55,954 bases of DNA from a virus. Taxonomy: Duplodnaviria > Caudoviricetes. The stretch is taken from positions 1 through 55,954 of the IMG/VR virus record IMGVR_UViG_3300032261_000007; one strand, written 5' to 3'. Under the pieces are notes generated by a model, which saw only the letters and a list, made by a program, of their open reading frames with translations, had not been told where the DNA came from and made no database searches. Below are positions 29,216 to 50,825 of the stretch, piece after piece. Position 1 is the stretch's first letter. Each line of letters starts with the position of its first letter. The position numbers were made by a program, and so were the translations under genes.

Positions 29216-30493
29216 TTACGCGGCGCGGCCCGACTCACGCGCGTCTTGAATGCGCAGAGATTTGTTCGCCGGGTCTGTGTAGACCTTGGAGAACGCTTGC
29301 TCGGGCGTGAGCTTTTCGCCCGGGTGATCTTTCAGATATTTCTGTGCCAGCGCGGCGAACTGGTCATAGGCCGTGCCGCCGCCGCCCAAGCCAGTGCCGC
29401 CGAACTCCTTGAACGCCCCGGCTTCCTTGGCCGCGGCAAAGCCGGACTTGGTCAGCGTCAACAGCTTGTCGATCGCTTCCCGGTCGCCCGCATAAGCCTT
29501 CTGCAGCGTTACGCCTTCGGCTTCCGGCAGCCCGACATCGACCGCGCGCTTGTTGAACGCGATCAGCGCCGCGGCGTCTTCCAGCTTCTTGACGCGCTCG
29601 ATCGCGTCTTTGCCGTCGGCGATCTGCTTGCGAATGCCAGCGGGCAGCGCAAGCAATGCCTTCTCTTCCTTCTCTTCGTCTTCCTCATCCTTGCGGCGAC
29701 GCGCTTTCTCCTTCTTTTCTTCTTCGTCGTCTTCCTCTTCCTCTTCCTTGTCGCCGTTGCCATTGCCGTTACGACGGCCGCGCTGCTTCTCGATCATGGC
29801 CGCGATCGCCTTGAGCGCATCTTCCTCGCTCGCGTCGTCTTGGAGACCGAGCGCTTTCAGAATTGCCGACATGGGTAACTCCTTTTTGTCGGTGGGTTGC
29901 TGCAGGGCTCGGTCGCCGAGCAGCGGTGATACGTGTTCGTGAAACTGCGTGAACGTCTTGGCCAGCATGTCCTCGCGGTCCACGTCGGCCTCGTCGTCCA
30001 TGATCGACTTCACGGATTCAGCGAGCCCGGCCAACGCCGCCTCGAAACCATCGCGGGCGTCGCGTTCCGGTTCTCGCTTGAACAGATCGGCGAAGAAGTC
30101 GGCGACACGCTCGCCAACCGGCGCGTGTTTGAAGGCATCGGACAGTTCGCCGCTCAGCCCGAGCGCTTTAGCACGCCGCCGGATATGCGCCTTGGCTTTG
30201 GCCGGGTCTTTGGCCCGCCCAATCGCCTGCATGGCGTTGTGCAGATCGGATTTGTTGTGGATCGGGAACGAGCCGTCCGGCAGTGCCGCGCCGGACGAGG
30301 CGGCGCTGCGACGCTGTTCGGCCGAGAACTCGCGCTTGAGATATTCGGCGGCCGGTTCGGCGTCACTCCAGTTTGCAAAGTTATAAAGCGGTTCCTCTTC
30401 CCGTTTCATCAGCATGATCTTGACTCCTTCGCCAGCACCGCGATCAACCGAACTGACTTCGTTGATGCGCAGCCGCCGCAAAATCTTCGGCAT
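29216..30493 (-). CDS. Scaffold protein with N-terminal protease-type strand and DUF6582-like domain
   Basis: Start moved to MPKILRRLRINEVSSVDRGA; ALPDGSFPI..DL.NA..AIGRA..HI..RA..LG domain; acidic/basic coiled-coil C-terminal half; internal AAGGAG-ATG at 29872. Confidence 0.7.
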   Translation of the reverse strand: MPKILRRLRINEVSSVDRGAGEGVKIMLMKREEEPLYNFANWSDAEPAAEYLKREFSAEQRRSAASSGAALPDGSFPIHNKSDLHNAMQAIGRAKDPAKAKAHIRRRAKALGLSGELSDAFKHAPVGERVADFFADLFKREPERDARDGFEAALAGLAESVKSIMDDEADVDREDMLAKTFTQFHEHVSPLLGDRALQQPTDKKELPMSAILKALGLQDDASEEDALKAIAAMIEKQRGRRNGNGNGDKEEEEEDDEEEKKEKARRRKDEEDEEKEEKALLALPAGIRKQIADGKDAIERVKKLEDAAALIAFNKRAVDVGLPEAEGVTLQKAYAGDREAIDKLLTLTKSGFAAAKEAGAFKEFGGTGLGGGGTAYDQFAALAQKYLKDHPGEKLTPEQAFSKVYTDPANKSLRIQDARESGRAA

Positions 30494-30494
30494 G

Positions 30495-30965
30495 TCATGG
30501 CCTCTTGCAGTGAATCCATTTGGCCGCGATCGCGGCGCGCGCGGCATCGAGCGTCATCGCCCCGCTGCAGACTTTTTTGTTGAAGGCGTTCTCGTCCACG
30601 TCCTTGACGTGCGCCGAGCACGGATCGGTCACCGCGAAAATCTGCGGCCACAGATTGTTTGGATTGGTCGGATGACCGCCAAGCTCCAGCGGGATGAAGT
30701 GGTCTTCCTCGTAATCGAGCGGGTTGCCGGTCAGTCCGAGCCCGCGCATTTGGATGCGCTTCAATGTGCTGGTGTAGTAAACCGGCGGCCGTACCGTCGC
30801 AGTCCAGCCCGGCTTGCAGATCGTGGTGGCGATGTTGGCTTGCGTGACCTTCGGATTATAGACGCCCGCCACAATCAAGTCGGTCGCCTTGCTCTTGGTG
30901 GTGGCGCACCCGCAGAACATGAGAATGCACAGCGCGCTGCCGACCAAGACCCTGATAGTTGGCAT
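30495..30965 (-). CDS. HNH-family nuclease with lipoprotein-like signal
   Basis: YEEDHFIPLELGG..NLWPQ..KD..EN; hydrophobic N-terminus ending FCGC. Confidence 0.68.
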   Translation of the reverse strand: MPTIRVLVGSALCILMFCGCATTKSKATDLIVAGVYNPKVTQANIATTICKPGWTATVRPPVYYTSTLKRIQMRGLGLTGNPLDYEEDHFIPLELGGHPTNPNNLWPQIFAVTDPCSAHVKDVDENAFNKKVCSGAMTLDAARAAIAAKWIHCKRP

Positions 30966-31147: not shown

Positions 31148-31480
31148 TCAGCCTTCAGCGACCGTATCTCGTGCGGAGATTCTCGTCGCGTCGATGATCG
31201 AGCAGGTGGGATGCCGCTCCTTCGCTCGGGTTGCCGCCGTGAGCGCTAGCCGTTTGGCACGAGCTTGGGCGCGGCCGATCTGCGCCCGTTCACGCCAGAT
31301 TTCATAAGCTTCAGGGCTGTACCAACGCTGACCGACACGGCGCAGCCCGCGATCGGTGTTCTTCTCGCGATCAACGTAGTCGCGCAGCCATGCGACCGCC
31401 CGCCGATAGCGTAGCCAGTCGCCGGTCATGAACGCATCGACCATCTGCGCGAGCATGGCATCGCGCTGATCGAAGTGCAT
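31148..31480 (-). CDS. Hypothetical protein
   Basis: Starts 1 nt after the upstream stop. Confidence 0.5.
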   Translation of the reverse strand: MHFDQRDAMLAQMVDAFMTGDWLRYRRAVAWLRDYVDREKNTDRGLRRVGQRWYSPEAYEIWRERAQIGRAQARAKRLALTAATRAKERHPTCSIIDATRISARDTVAEG

Positions 31481-31481
31481 G

Positions 31482-31709
31482 TCAGCCCCAAATGATCGGC
31501 TGACAACGTCGCAGTTCGCATTCGATCTCGGTCTTCGACTGCTTGATCGGCTTCGGCCGCGGTTCAGCCGCCGCCGATAGCGTGCGCCAGCCCAAATCGG
31601 TCAGCACCCAAGCGCCATTGATATTCTCGACATAACCGTCACGCTGTAGCTGGAAGATGCGCGCGATCTGGCTTTCGTGAACTGGTCGCGGTGCGGGCGG
31701 TGTGAACAT
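31482..31709 (-). CDS. Small winged-helix-like protein
   Basis: LQRDGYVE..WVLTDLGW pattern. Confidence 0.5.
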   Translation of the reverse strand: MFTPPAPRPVHESQIARIFQLQRDGYVENINGAWVLTDLGWRTLSAAAEPRPKPIKQSKTEIECELRRCQPIIWG

Positions 31710-31788: not shown

Positions 31789-31995
31789 ATGCCCGTCATC
31801 AAATACGGCAGCTATGACGGCTATGCCGTGCGGTTCACCCGCTATGAAGCGTGGATATTGGCCGACGGCCACTGGCAAAAGACCGGCGTGGCGCAAGTGC
31901 TGCACGAGGCGGCGCTGCTGACCAAAGAACAATTCCACCGCGTCTACGGGGCCTTGCCGCCGATGCCGAGTGCCGCTTTCCAGTCGCCCGAATAG
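31789..31995 (+). CDS. Small antisense-strand protein, candidate immunity/antitoxin for MuF-SAS
   Basis: GGAG at 31776-31779, ATG 31789; possible promoter GTTGCA-N17-CCATGT (31738-31766); overlaps the MuF 3' end by 52 nt. Confidence 0.6.
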   Translation: MPVIKYGSYDGYAVRFTRYEAWILADGHWQKTGVAQVLHEAALLTKEQFHRVYGALPPMPSAAFQSPE

Positions 31996-33377
31996 CTATC
32001 GAGCACCCGCTTATAAATCTCTTCACTCTTGGCGATCGCGGCATCATAAGCTTCGGGATCGGGATGCGGCCCATCCGGCGCGGTGTCCTGCATGATCTTG
32101 TACTGGACATGCCCGCCGCCCGGTCCCTTGGCATCCAGCATCTTCTGATCCATGAACTGCACTTCGCCGATCAGCCCATCCGGCATCCGCACGTTGATGG
32201 CACGATCGGCATAGTTCAGATCGGTCAGCTTCCACGGCTCGGTCACGATCTCGTAGCGCTGCGCTAGCCGCTCGATCGCCTCGTCGGCCTGCTCCGGTCG
32301 ATCGATCACGAAGGTCATGCGCACCACGTCGGTGACTTGCGCGACCTGACCGCCGCGGGCCGGGTCTTCTGCCTTCTCGATGACGCGGTTAATGCCCTTC
32401 TGCGTCCCGACCTTCGAGCCGTTTTCCTTCAGCTTGATGTCAAGGTCTTTGGCGATCTGACGGCCAGCCGCCACCAGACGCGCCTGATCGTCCGGTGCGG
32501 CGGCCACCACGTCGCCGATTGTTTGCAGCGGCGAGCGGTTGGCCCAATCCTTGATGACGCCCTTGCGCGCCTTGAAAGCGTCGCGCGGGTCGGCGTTTTC
32601 AGGAAGCTCTGGCGTGTAATCGTCGGGCTCGTAACCGGCGACTCGTTCTTCACGCGGTGTCGGTTCGTATTCGTCGGAGATGACAAGCTCGACTTCGCAC
32701 ATGCAATTGGGATGCAGCGGCGGACCGTCGCCCGCATCGCCAAAATCTTCGTCGATGTCCTTCACCCCTTCCGCTTCAGCAGCCTGACATAGCGGGCAGG
32801 GATCGCCGTCGGTCGTCCACGTCTTCTTGACCGGCACGCCGCGCTCGTTGGCCAACCGGCCCATCTCCAGCGTGGCGTCATTCTGCGCGAAGCTGATCTC
32901 GGTCCGCGCGATCATCTCGGCACGATAGTCGGAAAACACGCCGGTATCCGTCAGCTTGTCGGCAAGCTGATCCATATCCCAATGCAGCGCCACCGCATCG
33001 GTGACCAATTGGTTGACGACGTCCCGGGTCTTGTCGCTGATCGCCCACTTGGCATCCGGGTTATCGACCAGTTCGCCGTTCTCGTTGACCGTCTTGCCGA
33101 CCAGATTCGCGCCGCGTTCCTTGGCAAAATCGGTGGCGAAGGTGTGCAGCCGGTTGGCCACGTCGGTCGCCGTGACCGCGCCTTCCGGCAGTTCGTGCAC
33201 CGGGTTGTTTAGCTCGATGCCGTTGAAGGCATACATTCCCGCGCCTTCCGACGCGGCCGCCATCGAGCGCTGCGCCTCGCGGACGAAGTCGTCGATGCCC
33301 GGACCGTTGAGCACGCCGTCTTCGATGTCTTCGTCTTCGGCCTTGCGGACCAGCGCCGCAGCCATACGATTGGCCAT
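31944..33377 (-). CDS. MuF/head morphogenesis protein fused to a RelA/SpoT-like nucleotidyltransferase domain
   Basis: MuF: RAEMIARTE..KKTW..CPLC..PPLHPNCMC. C-terminal: RVIEK..DVVR..NYAD..N..G..EVQ..AK..GH..Y. Confidence 0.8.
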   Translation of the reverse strand: MANRMAAALVRKAEDEDIEDGVLNGPGIDDFVREAQRSMAAASEGAGMYAFNGIELNNPVHELPEGAVTATDVANRLHTFATDFAKERGANLVGKTVNENGELVDNPDAKWAISDKTRDVVNQLVTDAVALHWDMDQLADKLTDTGVFSDYRAEMIARTEISFAQNDATLEMGRLANERGVPVKKTWTTDGDPCPLCQAAEAEGVKDIDEDFGDAGDGPPLHPNCMCEVELVISDEYEPTPREERVAGYEPDDYTPELPENADPRDAFKARKGVIKDWANRSPLQTIGDVVAAAPDDQARLVAAGRQIAKDLDIKLKENGSKVGTQKGINRVIEKAEDPARGGQVAQVTDVVRMTFVIDRPEQADEAIERLAQRYEIVTEPWKLTDLNYADRAINVRMPDGLIGEVQFMDQKMLDAKGPGGGHVQYKIMQDTAPDGPHPDPEAYDAAIAKSEEIYKRVLDSYSGDWKAALGIGGKAP

Positions 33378-33444
33378 GATGTGCAGAAAGCGTTGCTTCT
33401 GCCACGCGAACAGTCGCTGTATCCGGTGATACAGCCGCGCCGCG

Positions 33445-34239
33445 TTAGTATGATCGAAAGGGCGCGCGCCCGAGCCGCCTGCCCCGGGCCTTTTCCACGT
33501 CCAAATTTAACGGCGAGTCGTCATCGCTGCTCTCAAAGGGCACCGACGACCCGCCGATCGAAAACTCCGGTAGGATGCCGCGCTTGTGGGCCGCCCAAAG
33601 CTCCGGGTCTTCAATCTGGTAGCCGACGATCCAGCCGATCTGATCATCCTTTTGGGTTAGCCCGAATGCCTTCATAAAATCAGGAGTAGTCAAAAAGGAC
33701 ATCACCAAACGGCCGGTGCCTTTGATATGGTGCATCACGCCGTGCTCGCGGGCATAGAGCATGTATTCCAGCACCGCGTTTTCCAGTTCCTTGACCGGGA
33801 TAATGTCGCCCTGCTTGTCGATGATGTATTTGCCGTCCTTGGCGACCACACTGGCCCAACCAAAGATCATCTGCCGTTCCGGTTCGGCCTTGGCGATGTC
33901 CAGCGTCAGCGACCAGCGCTTCTCGGCACCGATGTCGGATTCGCTGGTATCGTCGCCCGGCTTCTTCGATCGCGCGGCCGCAGCTTCGATCGCCATCTGG
34001 CGCTGACGGCGACGGCGCGCATGCTGATTGCCGAGTGCAGTCTGTGCATGCACGTCGCCGCCGCCGGGCTGCTGCTTGACCGTTTCACAAAATAGCTTGG
34101 CGGTCCCGCCGCGATGTTGTCGCCAGATGCCGTAACACTCGCCGAGCGCAGCTTGCTGTTCCTTGCCTTCGCCCATGACCTGCTTGACGCAGCGGCCGAC
34201 GAAGCTGCTTTGCGACTCGCCGCTGCTTGGTGTCGGCAT
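33445..34239 (-). CDS. XkdF-like prohead serine protease
   Basis: IFGWASV..DKQGDII..ELENA..GVMH..FSIGG; N-terminal MPTP..ESQSSFVGRC..QA...CY..W domain. Confidence 0.8.
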   Translation of the reverse strand: MPTPSSGESQSSFVGRCVKQVMGEGKEQQAALGECYGIWRQHRGGTAKLFCETVKQQPGGGDVHAQTALGNQHARRRRQRQMAIEAAAARSKKPGDDTSESDIGAEKRWSLTLDIAKAEPERQMIFGWASVVAKDGKYIIDKQGDIIPVKELENAVLEYMLYAREHGVMHHIKGTGRLVMSFLTTPDFMKAFGLTQKDDQIGWIVGYQIEDPELWAAHKRGILPEFSIGGSSVPFESSDDDSPLNLDVEKARGRRLGRAPFRSY

Positions 34240-34401
34240 TACAATGACCTTGTCTCACGGTCCAAACTGACCGTGGTAAAGTGGGATTCAACAGCGATGT
34301 TGGGCAGCGGTGCTTGCCACGGCCTTGAGGGCTACCGACGGCGCGGTCTAGTTCTCAAGGTGTCGCCGACCAGCGAGCTATCCCGGGACCGTGAGACGCC
34401 A

Positions 34402-34629
34402 TCAGGCATCCTCAAACTTTTTGAACGGCGTGAACGTGATGTTCTCGTCGGTCTTGCCGCGGTATTCGCCGCACCAGCCATCTTCGGTGACCGGCGGCCA
34501 GCCGCCCTGCGTGATCAAGCCTTGCGGCGTCGGAATCAAATGCATGGTCGGCGCATGCGCACGGCACGCGCCCTGCTTCGGCTGCAGCCGTTCACGCACG
34601 AAAAACCTGCACGATTTACAGCTTTCCAT
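34402..34629 (-). CDS. Small Cys-rich protein
   Basis: CKSCRFF..G.CR..AP..WP....WCGE pattern. Confidence 0.62.
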   Translation of the reverse strand: MESCKSCRFFVRERLQPKQGACRAHAPTMHLIPTPQGLITQGGWPPVTEDGWCGEYRGKTDENITFTPFKKFEDA

Positions 34630-34630
34630 T

Positions 34631-34897
34631 TTACGTGATGCTAATGGGAGTTACCGCGGCTGCGGCTGCGTTCGCCGCCTGCGATCGCTGCCAGCCGCCG
34701 ATCGCATAGACCTGATCGGCAAACAACTGCGTGACCCAACCGGCCAGCAACTGCGTATTGGTCATCCCGGGAACCGACGACGGCAACGTCGCCACATAGT
34801 TCAACACCGTCTGCAAATCGGTATCGCTGATCGTCTTGTTCACTTGCACATTGGGCGCAAGACTCGACCCGCTCAGCGAAAGAGTAATCGTCGCCAT
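34631..34897 (-). CDS. Hypothetical protein
   Basis: 88 aa, coupled to 34402..34629. Confidence 0.55.
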   Translation of the reverse strand: MATITLSLSGSSLAPNVQVNKTISDTDLQTVLNYVATLPSSVPGMTNTQLLAGWVTQLFADQVYAIGGWQRSQAANAAAAAVTPISIT

Positions 34898-34988
34898 TAT
34901 TTAATCTCGCTTCGATGTGACCGACGTCACAGTATACCGCGCTTAGGCATGACAGCGTTCGCGCCGTTGAAACGGTGAGGAGCCGGTC

Positions 34989-35171
34989 ATGTCCAAATCT
35001 GTTGTCGCGGCAGCGATCGCTTGTGCGATTGGTGTTGCCGTCACATTAGCCGCCACCAAGACGCACGAGTTCGTGCGGCCGATCGTCGTGCCTGCGGTCG
35101 ATGAATCGCCGCTGCACGTTCACTTGCAAGGCAACCCGCACGGCGTTAGCCAGGATGCACCGCAGCCGTAG
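34989..35171 (+). CDS. Small secreted/membrane protein on the opposite strand (moron-like)
   Basis: SD GAGGAG; hydrophobic N-terminus VVAAAIACAIGVAVTLAA. Confidence 0.55.
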   Translation: MSKSVVAAAIACAIGVAVTLAATKTHEFVRPIVVPAVDESPLHVHLQGNPHGVSQDAPQP

Positions 35172-35317
35172 TTATCCACAACTTTGCATCTTGTGGATTA
35201 CGCCGCGGTGTGCATAACTGCGTGCGCTCGGTGAGCCTCGTAAAGCAAATGTTGGGCAATAGCCGCAGCCCGGTCGTGGTGTCCATACGCTGTTAAACCG
35301 GCGGGTTTTTATCCACG
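35172..35317. promoter_or_regulatory. DnaA-box cluster
   Basis: TTATCCACA 35172-35180, TGTGGATTA 35192-35200, TGTGCATAA 35209-35217, TTATCCACG 35309-35317. Confidence 0.55.
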
Positions 35318-35381
35318 AGGGTCGCGACGGAGTTCACCGGGCACCTTTCTCATGTTCCCAAGCATCATGACTGGCTTAGCC

Positions 35382-35415
35382 AAGGACCGGATTTGCCCCC
35401 GGTCCTTTCTCTTTT
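35382..35415 (+). terminator. Intrinsic terminator
   Basis: AAGGACCGG-loop-CCGGTCCTT followed by TCTCTTTT. Confidence 0.6.
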
Positions 35416-35520
35416 ATGGATGATCGTTAAGCCACAGCCACAGCCGCCAGCACGTCGCCATGAAAGTCAGCGCAATAATCCAGTCGGCGATCACTTTGGC
35501 CAGCAATAGCGCGTCAGTGT

Positions 35521-49983: not shown

Positions 49984-50825
49984 TGCCGATCGAGCGTGCG
50001 CACGCTGTGTGACGGTCGGCTACGTTCTTGCTTCGCCTTGGGTGGGTCAAGGCTACAGCGACCGGCAGAGAAAAACATCTGAGTACGAGTCGCAGAGCGG
50101 AGTGGAAATCTCCGCACAGTTCGAACGGCGCACGGTCGCCGTAAGCGTGAAGCCTATAGGGCAGGATGCCTTGGGCTGGTGATCGCATCCGTGACGCCGC
50201 GCGGGCGGCGACAGCGTCGGCCGACGCACCCGCATCAATTCGGGGCGTTAGTGCAGCGGCCAAGCACGTCGGTCCCTCAAACCGAAAACGCCGGGTTCGA
50301 GTCCCGCACGCCCTACCAAAACGACGAGCGTGGTCCGTACCGGCAAGTGAAAGACCTTGCCACGGAGTACTCAGCGCAAGCTGCGAAGCCACGACCGGCC
50401 CGCCAATGGCTTGAGGGCGGGCACCTTAAATCATCTGCACCACGTAAGAGTCCGGCCCAAAAGAGCCGCTAACAAACGAGTATCGGCTAAGCGCCGACGG
50501 CGGGGATAAGCTGGCACGTAGCGTGGCAGGCGCGAGCCTAACGACCACTGTTGCGGTGCAGATAAAGACGCAAGCGTTCGTTCGAGCAGCGAGCCCGGTC
50601 ACCGCGAACCCAAAGCGGCCCGGGCGGCAGACCCGGCTTTTGCCTGCAGGAAACCCACTGCCGAACGACGCGGAGCTTGCGGGGAACCACCGGCCGATCG
50701 GAATTGCCCAACGGGCCAAACGGGATCGGCGGTTGGTTTCGGCGGGGCGTTCCGGCCTATGGCCGTGCGGTCAAACCGCAGCCTTGCACGCTGGCGTCGC
50801 GTGCAACGCCCCACCGATACCAACC
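49984..50825 (+). ncRNA. Large ornate structured RNA candidate (GOLLD-like or novel) containing a tRNA
   Basis: About 840 nt with no credible gene; many hairpins and GNRA loops; long-range pairings. Confidence 0.6.
50242..50318 (+). tRNA. tRNA-Glu(CUC), atypical
   Basis: Acceptor GGGGCGT/ACGCCCT, D arm GTGC/GCAC, anticodon stem TCGGT/ACCGA with loop CC-CTC-AA, GTTCGAG T loop, encoded CCA. Confidence 0.8.

Follow-up and report, generated by a model that had tools for sequence, protein, structure and literature searches.

A probable programmed +1 ribosomal frameshift at a conserved TTT_CG junction between XkdF-like and MuF genes of soil phages

Introduction

Established +1 frameshifts in bacteria and their phages are few; prfB, Listeria phage genes and the Yersinia YopN-TyeA fusion are the cases named in one review (Atkins et al., PMC5009743), which also describes UUU_Ynn sequences as sites prone to +1 shifting in bacteria. 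In this study we analyse IMG/VR record IMGVR_UViG_3300032261_000007, a viral metagenome record of 55,954 bases and approximately 60% G+C, taken at its full length and referred to below as the window. On its minus strand, within a head gene module, the end of an XkdF-like open reading frame (ORF) for a putative prohead serine protease is overlapped by an open +1 frame that continues into a MuF ORF. A programmed +1 ribosomal frameshift at TTT_CGA, by which the XkdF-like protein would be fused to MuF, is in our judgement the likely explanation of this arrangement.

Further precedents exist for both the shift and the genes. The cps and tsh genes of Listeria phage PSA shift +1 on CCC (CCC_UGA or CCC_UCC), stimulated by a stop codon or a pseudoknot, and the PA-X protein of influenza A arises at UCC_UUU_CGU, at a very low level and with no evident stimulator (both PMC5009743). 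MuF proteins of temperate phages are described as polymorphic toxins that carry, behind the MuF domain, a C-terminal domain of variable type, RelA-like domains among them. The protein presumably travels in the head and enters the cell along with the DNA, and its gene muf comes directly after that of the portal (Jamet et al. 2017, PMC5576092). The word 'frameshift' does not occur in the main text of that paper, supplements aside. In the available part of the PRFect paper, MuF is named only beside ADP-ribosyltransferase, among candidate false positives. Neither a paper naming XkdF together with MuF nor a published frameshift link of the two was found in the literature searched, subscription journals being outside its scope. 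Amalgavirus papers reportedly describe +1 frameshifting at UUU_CGN.

The junction in the window would share with the UUU_Ynn sites and YopN-TyeA a P-site tRNA-Phe on UUU followed by a pyrimidine, no need for an A-site stop codon, the fusion of adjacent ORFs and bacterial translation, as PMC5009743 characterizes them. It differs in involving head genes of phages, in a site conserved over a diverged clade, and in that the shift is here predicted from sequence. The NCC/NCN_UUU_CGN core and the +1 direction are common to PA-X and the amalgaviruses, whereas those are RNA viruses translated on eukaryotic ribosomes, with CGU rare in the host; CGA is here largely imposed by an Asp codon of the +1 frame. 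PSA likewise presents a +1 shift in tailed-phage structural genes with a short and a long product. PSA slips on Pro, while here the Pro codon varies and the products would be XkdF and XkdF-MuF, not capsid or tail extensions. With the MuF polymorphic toxins, as Jamet et al. describe them, the window shares a MuF domain followed by a variable C-terminal domain, here with a predicted fold like that of Tas1 and other small alarmone synthetases (SAS); unlike theirs, its muf comes after an XkdF-like gene, not the portal gene, and lacks a separate start codon. Shifts of this kind are already known; what is new is the gene pair, its conservation and its apparent spread.

Results and Discussion

The junction in the window

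The XkdF-like ORF ends on the minus strand with GCG CCC TTT CGA TCA TAC TAA (feature coordinates are collected in Table 1), and the C-terminal tail of its product reads ...EKARGRRLGRAPF-RSY*. The +1 frame is closed upstream by a TAA at 33509-33507 and is open from 33506 on into the MuF ORF. From TTT_C it reads (F)DHTNAARLYHRIQRLFAWQKQRFLHI before reaching the ATG at 33377, from which the MuF ORF was called at 477 aa. Neither the 16 codons of this frame ahead of the site nor the 26 between the site and ATG 33377 include an ATG, GTG or TTG, and no Shine-Dalgarno sequence (GGAG- or GAGG-like) was seen by eye in the 20 nucleotides (nt) ahead of that ATG (AGCAACGCTTTCTGCACATC). An earlier reading of this DNA (the original prediction) had described the protease end, the open +1 frame leading into the MuF Met, and the lack of both an earlier start and a Shine-Dalgarno sequence; its description proved accurate in every checkable detail.

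Under a programmed shift, most ribosomes would read ...CCC UUU CGA UCA UAC UAA and release the 264-aa XkdF-like protein, which would be the product without a shift. In a fraction of ribosomes, with CGA in the A site, the P-site peptidyl-tRNA-Phe would slip +1 from UUU to UUC (33458-33456), where its pairing would be a full Watson-Crick match; the anticodon of tRNA-Phe, which we take to be GAA, reads UUU by wobble. Decoding would then resume with GAU (GAT 33455-33453) and yield an XkdF-MuF-SAS fusion with the junction ...GRAPF-DHTNAAR..., i.e. ...LGRAPFDHTNAAR..., for which APFDHTNAAR is the predicted junction peptide. The predicted fusion is 261 + 503 = 764 aa long, in good agreement with the approximately 760 aa first proposed, and the +1-frame MuF-SAS part would be translated solely as its C-terminal part.

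The shift would presumably be ribosomal and of low efficiency. Gag-Pol and frameshifted phage structural proteins offer an analogy for the XkdF to XkdF-MuF ratio: the proportion of the two products may set a low MuF dose, and the XkdF part may bring MuF and its alarmone-synthetase-like domain into the prohead.

Conservation of the junction among relatives

DNA of relatives was gathered from three viral-contig scans, one metagenome-contig scan and one genome-contig scan, with XkdF and MuF placed by tblastn. Wherever XkdF lay directly ahead of MuF in the loci so placed, the two frames were either +1 apart or the same. Copies of the same contig or sequence among the +1-broken loci (L002-L005, L007, L008, L132, L134, L136-L140, L153 and L162) were collapsed, which left 2 distinct in-frame loci and 11 distinct broken lineages: the window, L153, L002, L003, L004, L005, L007, L008, L136 (with L137, L140 and L157), L138 (with L139) and L162.

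TTT_CG is present at the break in all 11 (CGA in ten, CGC in one). The junction reads CCC TTT CGA in eight lineages, CCT TTT CGA in L162, CCG TTT CGA in L007 and CCT TTT CGC in L005, and the 0-frame stop falls 1-3 codons past TTT throughout. The in-frame fusion loci read CCT TTT GAG (L009) and CCT TTT GAC (L231), without an extra base; the broken form therefore has exactly one extra base in or next to the Phe codon. The proposal of a +1 shift at CCC_TTT_CGA fusing the protease to MuF is strengthened by this comparison, given TTT_CG with an open +1 frame in every broken lineage and in-frame relatives that lack the extra base. In seven of the 11 lineages there is no ATG, GTG or TTG between the last +1 stop and the site. 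Downstream of the site, the first +1 start lies 11-74 codons off in the 11 lineages, at no fixed place.

XkdF identity to the window among these relatives ranges from 83% down to approximately 41%. In a tree of the XkdF parts, ten broken rows stand on one side of a single branch (98/97 support); L004, whose locus covers just 72 codons of the gene, was left out. A single origin of the break, with retention through deep divergence, is probable. The comparison shows the break to be real and inherited, and the slippery TTT_C to have been invariant over that divergence.

The arrangement may extend further. Of the best 120 among 279 XkdF homologue clusters, one was that of the query itself; of the other 119, 33 end in ...PFR plus 0-3 residues, a tail that reads as a signature of the same XkdF/MuF arrangement. 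When the divergent PFR-tailed subfamily (P0098 type) was sought as DNA in the viral-contig scan, only the in-frame L231 and unrelated contexts were found. Among isolated phages (INPHARED) there were distant XkdF-domain matches only and no close relative, and the genome-contig scan gave no close relative and no host assignment.

Two side observations concern these homologues. Firstly, P0073, P0074 and P0076 are XkdF homologues ending exactly in ...RTPF, or in ...SFRYP or ...RFRYP, and their ends may be variants of the site, for example with a stop directly past TTT. Secondly, a MuF match lies upstream of XkdF, the reverse of the order in the window, in a number of more distant relatives (L166, L167, L170, L173-L176, L184-L186, L189, L192, L198, L205, L233, L236, L238, L242, L243, L246, L248, L249, L253, L255-L258, L260, L272 and L273).

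The codon on which the frame would change

A stop-to-stop translation of the MuF frame was used as query and found 51 relatives, 18 of which were aligned (alignment A1). The motif P-F-(D/E/A) is conserved in the fused, unfused and broken family members of this alignment. In L005, L007 and L162 the +1 frame gives L-F or R-F at this place, so that Pro is encoded in the 0 frame only and Asp or Ala in the +1 frame only; the frame change therefore falls on the Phe codon. TTT_C is the only invariant feature of the site, the Pro codon varying between CCC, CCT and CCG, and re-pairing from UUU to UUC is possible in all 11 lineages.

Three other mechanisms were considered and rejected. A slip of tRNA-Pro on CCC_U, of the Listeria phage PSA type, is ruled out by CCT in L005 and L162 and CCG in L007; a -2 shift is ruled out as no re-pairing is possible; and transcriptional slippage is ruled out by runs of C and T that are just 3 bases long.

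The MuF N-terminus and selection on the downstream frame

The 26-27 codons from the site to ATG 33377 match a protein-conserved N-terminal block in the 18 homologues of A1 (window RPFDHTNAARLYHRIQRLFAWQKQRFLHI versus consensus RAPFDxxxAxxxxHxxxRLFAxQxxRLLHNLHNEW). Because the codons preceding it are conserved as protein in homologues, ATG 33377 is not the true N-terminus of MuF. In five homologues of the same alignment (P0003, P0004, P0005, P0014 and P0020), ...KA(R/Q/K)GxRxxRAPFD... is written in a single frame; this corresponds to the 0-frame tail of the window, EKARGRRLGRAPF, joined to the +1 continuation DHTN.... Natural in-frame XkdF-MuF fusions with both Pfam domains are seen in P0023 (498 aa) and P0028 (428 aa). 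These fusions, like L009 and L231, have the same domains, order and RxPF(D/E) junction motif as the window; unlike it, they are encoded in a single frame, with XkdF and MuF at 1:1, no extra base and no short XkdF product.

MuF past the break is under purifying selection. The ratio of nonsynonymous to synonymous substitution rates (dN/dS) of this part is 0.16-0.53 in six pairs, with dS of 0.39-1.89, and that of the XkdF part is similar at 0.14-0.31. The MuF ORF past the break remains open for 230-572 codons in the seven loci with a complete gene. Variation in the +1 frame is greatest at third codon positions, the periodicity signal being weak and in the expected direction. The downstream frame, though under purifying selection, has no conserved start of its own.

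Evidence against a programmed shift

Several observations weigh against a programmed shift or limit what may be claimed for it. The first concerns CGA, which the original prediction had regarded as a slow codon. CGA does occur in ten of the 11 lineages, but the conserved +1-frame Asp codon (GAY) begins with this G and A and so dictates both; L005, which has Ala, has CGC. The presence of CGA is therefore not independent evidence of a slow codon. Nor is CGA rare in the phage, with 164 of 1217 Arg codons (13%, from a rough gene set of the window). Moreover, nine in-frame TTT_CGN occur in the ORFs of the window, including one other TTT_CGA, and the motif alone is therefore unlikely to shift efficiently.

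The second concerns stimulators, of which no convincing one was recognized near the site among RNA structure, Shine-Dalgarno-like sequences and synonymous conservation. RNAalifold suggests a possible 7-bp upstream hairpin (Table 1). In it 87% of cells are paired, and a single compensatory pair is seen, which comes from the window sequence. Sliding the register by +2 leaves 75% of cells paired, the stem is disrupted in L005 and weaker in L007, and part of the pairing is due to GCGCGC repeats. Downstream of the site, RNAalifold gives a weak helix approximately 45 nt off, in which one of six pairs shows a single compensatory change. The last 12 codons have a synonymous-site conservation of 0.71, a modest rise over the mean of 0.595 that is exceeded in other parts of the gene. 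A conserved AGGCGG ends 15 nt ahead of TTT; such a spacing between Shine-Dalgarno sequence and P site is not the one known to favour a +1 shift.

The third concerns the relatives. Since the broken rows lie on one side of a branch, the 11 lineages represent one event retained, not 11 independent events, and in four of them a TTG, GTG or ATG is found in the +1 frame upstream of the site. In a sister clade, MuF seemingly has its own Met just ahead of RAPFD (P0003, P0004, P0005, P0014 and P0020; P0006, P0012 and P0018), with starts of the form MMLQP... or MK[IV]xRAPFD in A1; fusion is therefore not needed for MuF function in general. A Shine-Dalgarno-led MuF start in homologues had been named in the original prediction as evidence that would count against a shift. 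This does not hold within the clade of the window, while the sister clade does seem to have a start of its own. Judging from these alignments, separate-gene, frameshifted and in-frame-fused architectures all exist at the XkdF-MuF junction.

Alternative explanations

We think it unlikely that XkdF and MuF are two separate genes without a shift, with MuF started in or just past the overlap at a non-canonical codon or by termination-reinitiation. The nearness of the 0-frame stop, 1-3 codons past the site, gives a geometry as in coupled reinitiation, and the four lineages with an upstream +1-frame start, together with the sister-clade Met beside the same motif, are what separate genes might look like. 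In the other seven lineages, however, the open +1 stretch is without a canonical start, and the window ATG has no Shine-Dalgarno-like sequence ahead of it. The P-F-D motif, whose Pro only the 0 frame encodes in L005, L007 and L162, spans the break and would be lost on reinitiation past the stop. Nor would separate genes readily account for a TTT_C that is invariant while neighbouring codons vary.

An old frameshift mutation that split a fused gene would leave only XkdF and a shortened MuF from the first internal start, ATG 33377, which is where the 477-aa ORF of the gene caller begins. Set against the in-frame CCT TTT GAG and CCT TTT GAC, the break does resemble a one-base gain in the short T run of the Phe codon. 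It is nonetheless quite improbable as an explanation: the 26-27 codons ahead of this ATG are conserved as protein, including in unfused and in-frame homologues, +1-frame variation peaks at third codon positions, and the first internal start wanders over 11-74 codons from the site with, in the window, no Shine-Dalgarno sequence ahead of it.

The window is a viral contig assembled from a metagenome, but it is extremely improbable on these data that the break is an indel from assembly or sequencing, or marks a dead gene in this contig alone: the same break recurs in ten other distinct lineages on other contigs, contigs of four runs not flagged as its possible source span 33440-33483 with 0 gaps, and MuF is open for 230-572 codons in the seven complete loci with dN/dS below 1. 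The original prediction had itself raised an indel error, and the contigs of these four runs contain none. The stretch is present in 19 soil-metagenome runs, with no RNA run listed for it. As a side observation, run X12 has C for T (plus strand) at position 33494, a population variant upstream of the site that replaces Glu (GAA) by Gly (GGA) in the XkdF tail.

A programmed +1 shift at TTT_CGA is thus preferred to these alternatives. If it is true, the junction represents a conserved and apparently widespread +1 case in which the site is a simple UUU_C and no stop codon is involved, and a clean system in which to ask how an error-prone tetranucleotide becomes a used signal. It also suggests a way in which phages could keep the head content of MuF-type pilot or toxin proteins at a low copy number. 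For annotation, the MuF ORF called from ATG 33377 probably does not stand alone as a protein, and in relatives gene callers shorten MuF or assign it spurious starts. A broader picture would be a clade of soil phages in which UUU_CGA acts as a conserved +1 signal in bacteria, giving a Gag-Pol-like pair with a rare toxin-bearing fusion at a fixed low ratio, where a hairpin refolding 8 nt behind the P site perhaps pushes the ribosome forward, and to which at least 33 PFR-tailed clusters belong; this picture we regard as possible and rather doubtful.

The C-terminal domain of MuF

The MuF domain of the window was identified by Pfam (Table 1). For the domain that follows it, residues 300-520 of the stop-to-stop translation, an AlphaFold2 (AF2) model was built from six sequences and reached a predicted local distance difference test score (pLDDT) of 85.4. 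Foldseek gave 36 PDB matches to this model at E ≤ 0.001, the best being 6ox6_A, Tas1 (E 1.6e-6, template-modelling (TM) scores 0.57/0.64), with 8vx3, an exported SAS, RelP and SAS1 among the other top matches. By sequence, no Pfam family was matched at E ≤ 10 (PF04607 included) and no PDB sequence match was found; an Atlas lead pointed to RelA_SpoT, annotated for 17% of the members in a single cluster. The label 'MuF-SAS' of the original prediction is in this way borne out by the predicted fold, with Tas1 and small alarmone synthetases at the top, and finds no sequence match. The C-termini of homologues differ, with PF03496, PF13563 or no such domain. Since they vary or are absent in relatives with the same frameshift (230-572 codons), the recoding goes with the XkdF-MuF junction rather than with the toxin.

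Two small ORFs lie directly downstream of the SAS-like domain, at 31482-31709 and 31148-31480 on the minus strand, and are candidate immunity proteins; these ORFs, of 75 and 110 aa, had no Pfam match. On the opposite strand, antisense open frames run over MuF within 31851-33429 (33001-33429, 32337-32792 and 31851-32267, plus strand). The original prediction had linked the fusion to an antisense gene. This link is not supported, the position of the antisense frames not being conserved in five relatives; the pattern is that expected for G+C-rich coding DNA and not a gene.

The XkdF-like protein and the head module

The designation 'head protease' given at first agrees with Pfam, where PF14550 matches the XkdF-like ORF at E 1.2e-11 (45.1 bits; gathering score 24), this family being the sole basis of the label; PHROG matches of the ORF include 'head maturation protease'. 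A PDB profile search with the protein found no match, and its AF2 model, at pLDDT 46, was too poor for fold searching.

Table 1. Coordinates of the junction, its two genes and other features in the window (positions are those of the 55,954-base record)
Feature	Position	Strand	Remarks
Proposed shift site CCC_TTT_CGA	33454..33462	-	CCC 33462-33460, TTT 33459-33457, CGA 33456-33454
0-frame stop TAA	33445..33447	-	Three codons past TTT
Overlap zone	33448..33506	-	0 and +1 frames both open; no canonical start inside
XkdF-like ORF, 264 aa	33445..34239	-	Peptidase_S78_2 domain at residues 115-234; putative prohead serine protease
Annotated MuF ATG	33375..33377	-	Internal Met; not conserved as a start
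+1-frame MuF-SAS coding part	31944..33458	-	TTC + 503 codons + stop 31946-31944
MuF domain PF04233	32691..33017	-	Residues 121-229 of the 477-aa ORF; E 2.5e-8, 35.1 bits (gathering score 29.6)
C-terminal domain, 221 aa	31947..32609	-	Predicted RelA/SpoT-type fold (small alarmone synthetase, Tas1-like)
Possible 7-bp hairpin (tentative)	33468..33489	-	GCCCGGG, 8-nt loop, CTCGGGC; RNAalifold; ends 8 nt ahead of TTT
Large terminase	41769-40333	-	Head module
Mu-type portal	37591-36026	-	Pfam

The portal gene and muf belong to the same head module and are not adjacent: a 180-aa ORF, a stretch without assignment and the XkdF-like ORF lie between them, and a cement protein and other head genes are found further along. 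The stretch at 34240-35520, between the 180-aa ORF past the portal and the XkdF-like ORF, holds only short ORFs on both strands, and the two of these that were scanned had no family match. Elsewhere in the window, its sole tRNA, tRNA-Glu (anticodon CTC), lies at 50242-50318 on the plus strand, with no evident tie to the shift site. On the minus strand at 29216-30547, a 443-aa ORF has a long Glu/Lys/Asp-rich stretch and a scaffold-like look, and its only family match, to Mu-like_Pro, falls below threshold (E 0.0093, 16 bits; cut-off 25.2); in addition to XkdF, a further protease or scaffold gene may thus be present in the phage.

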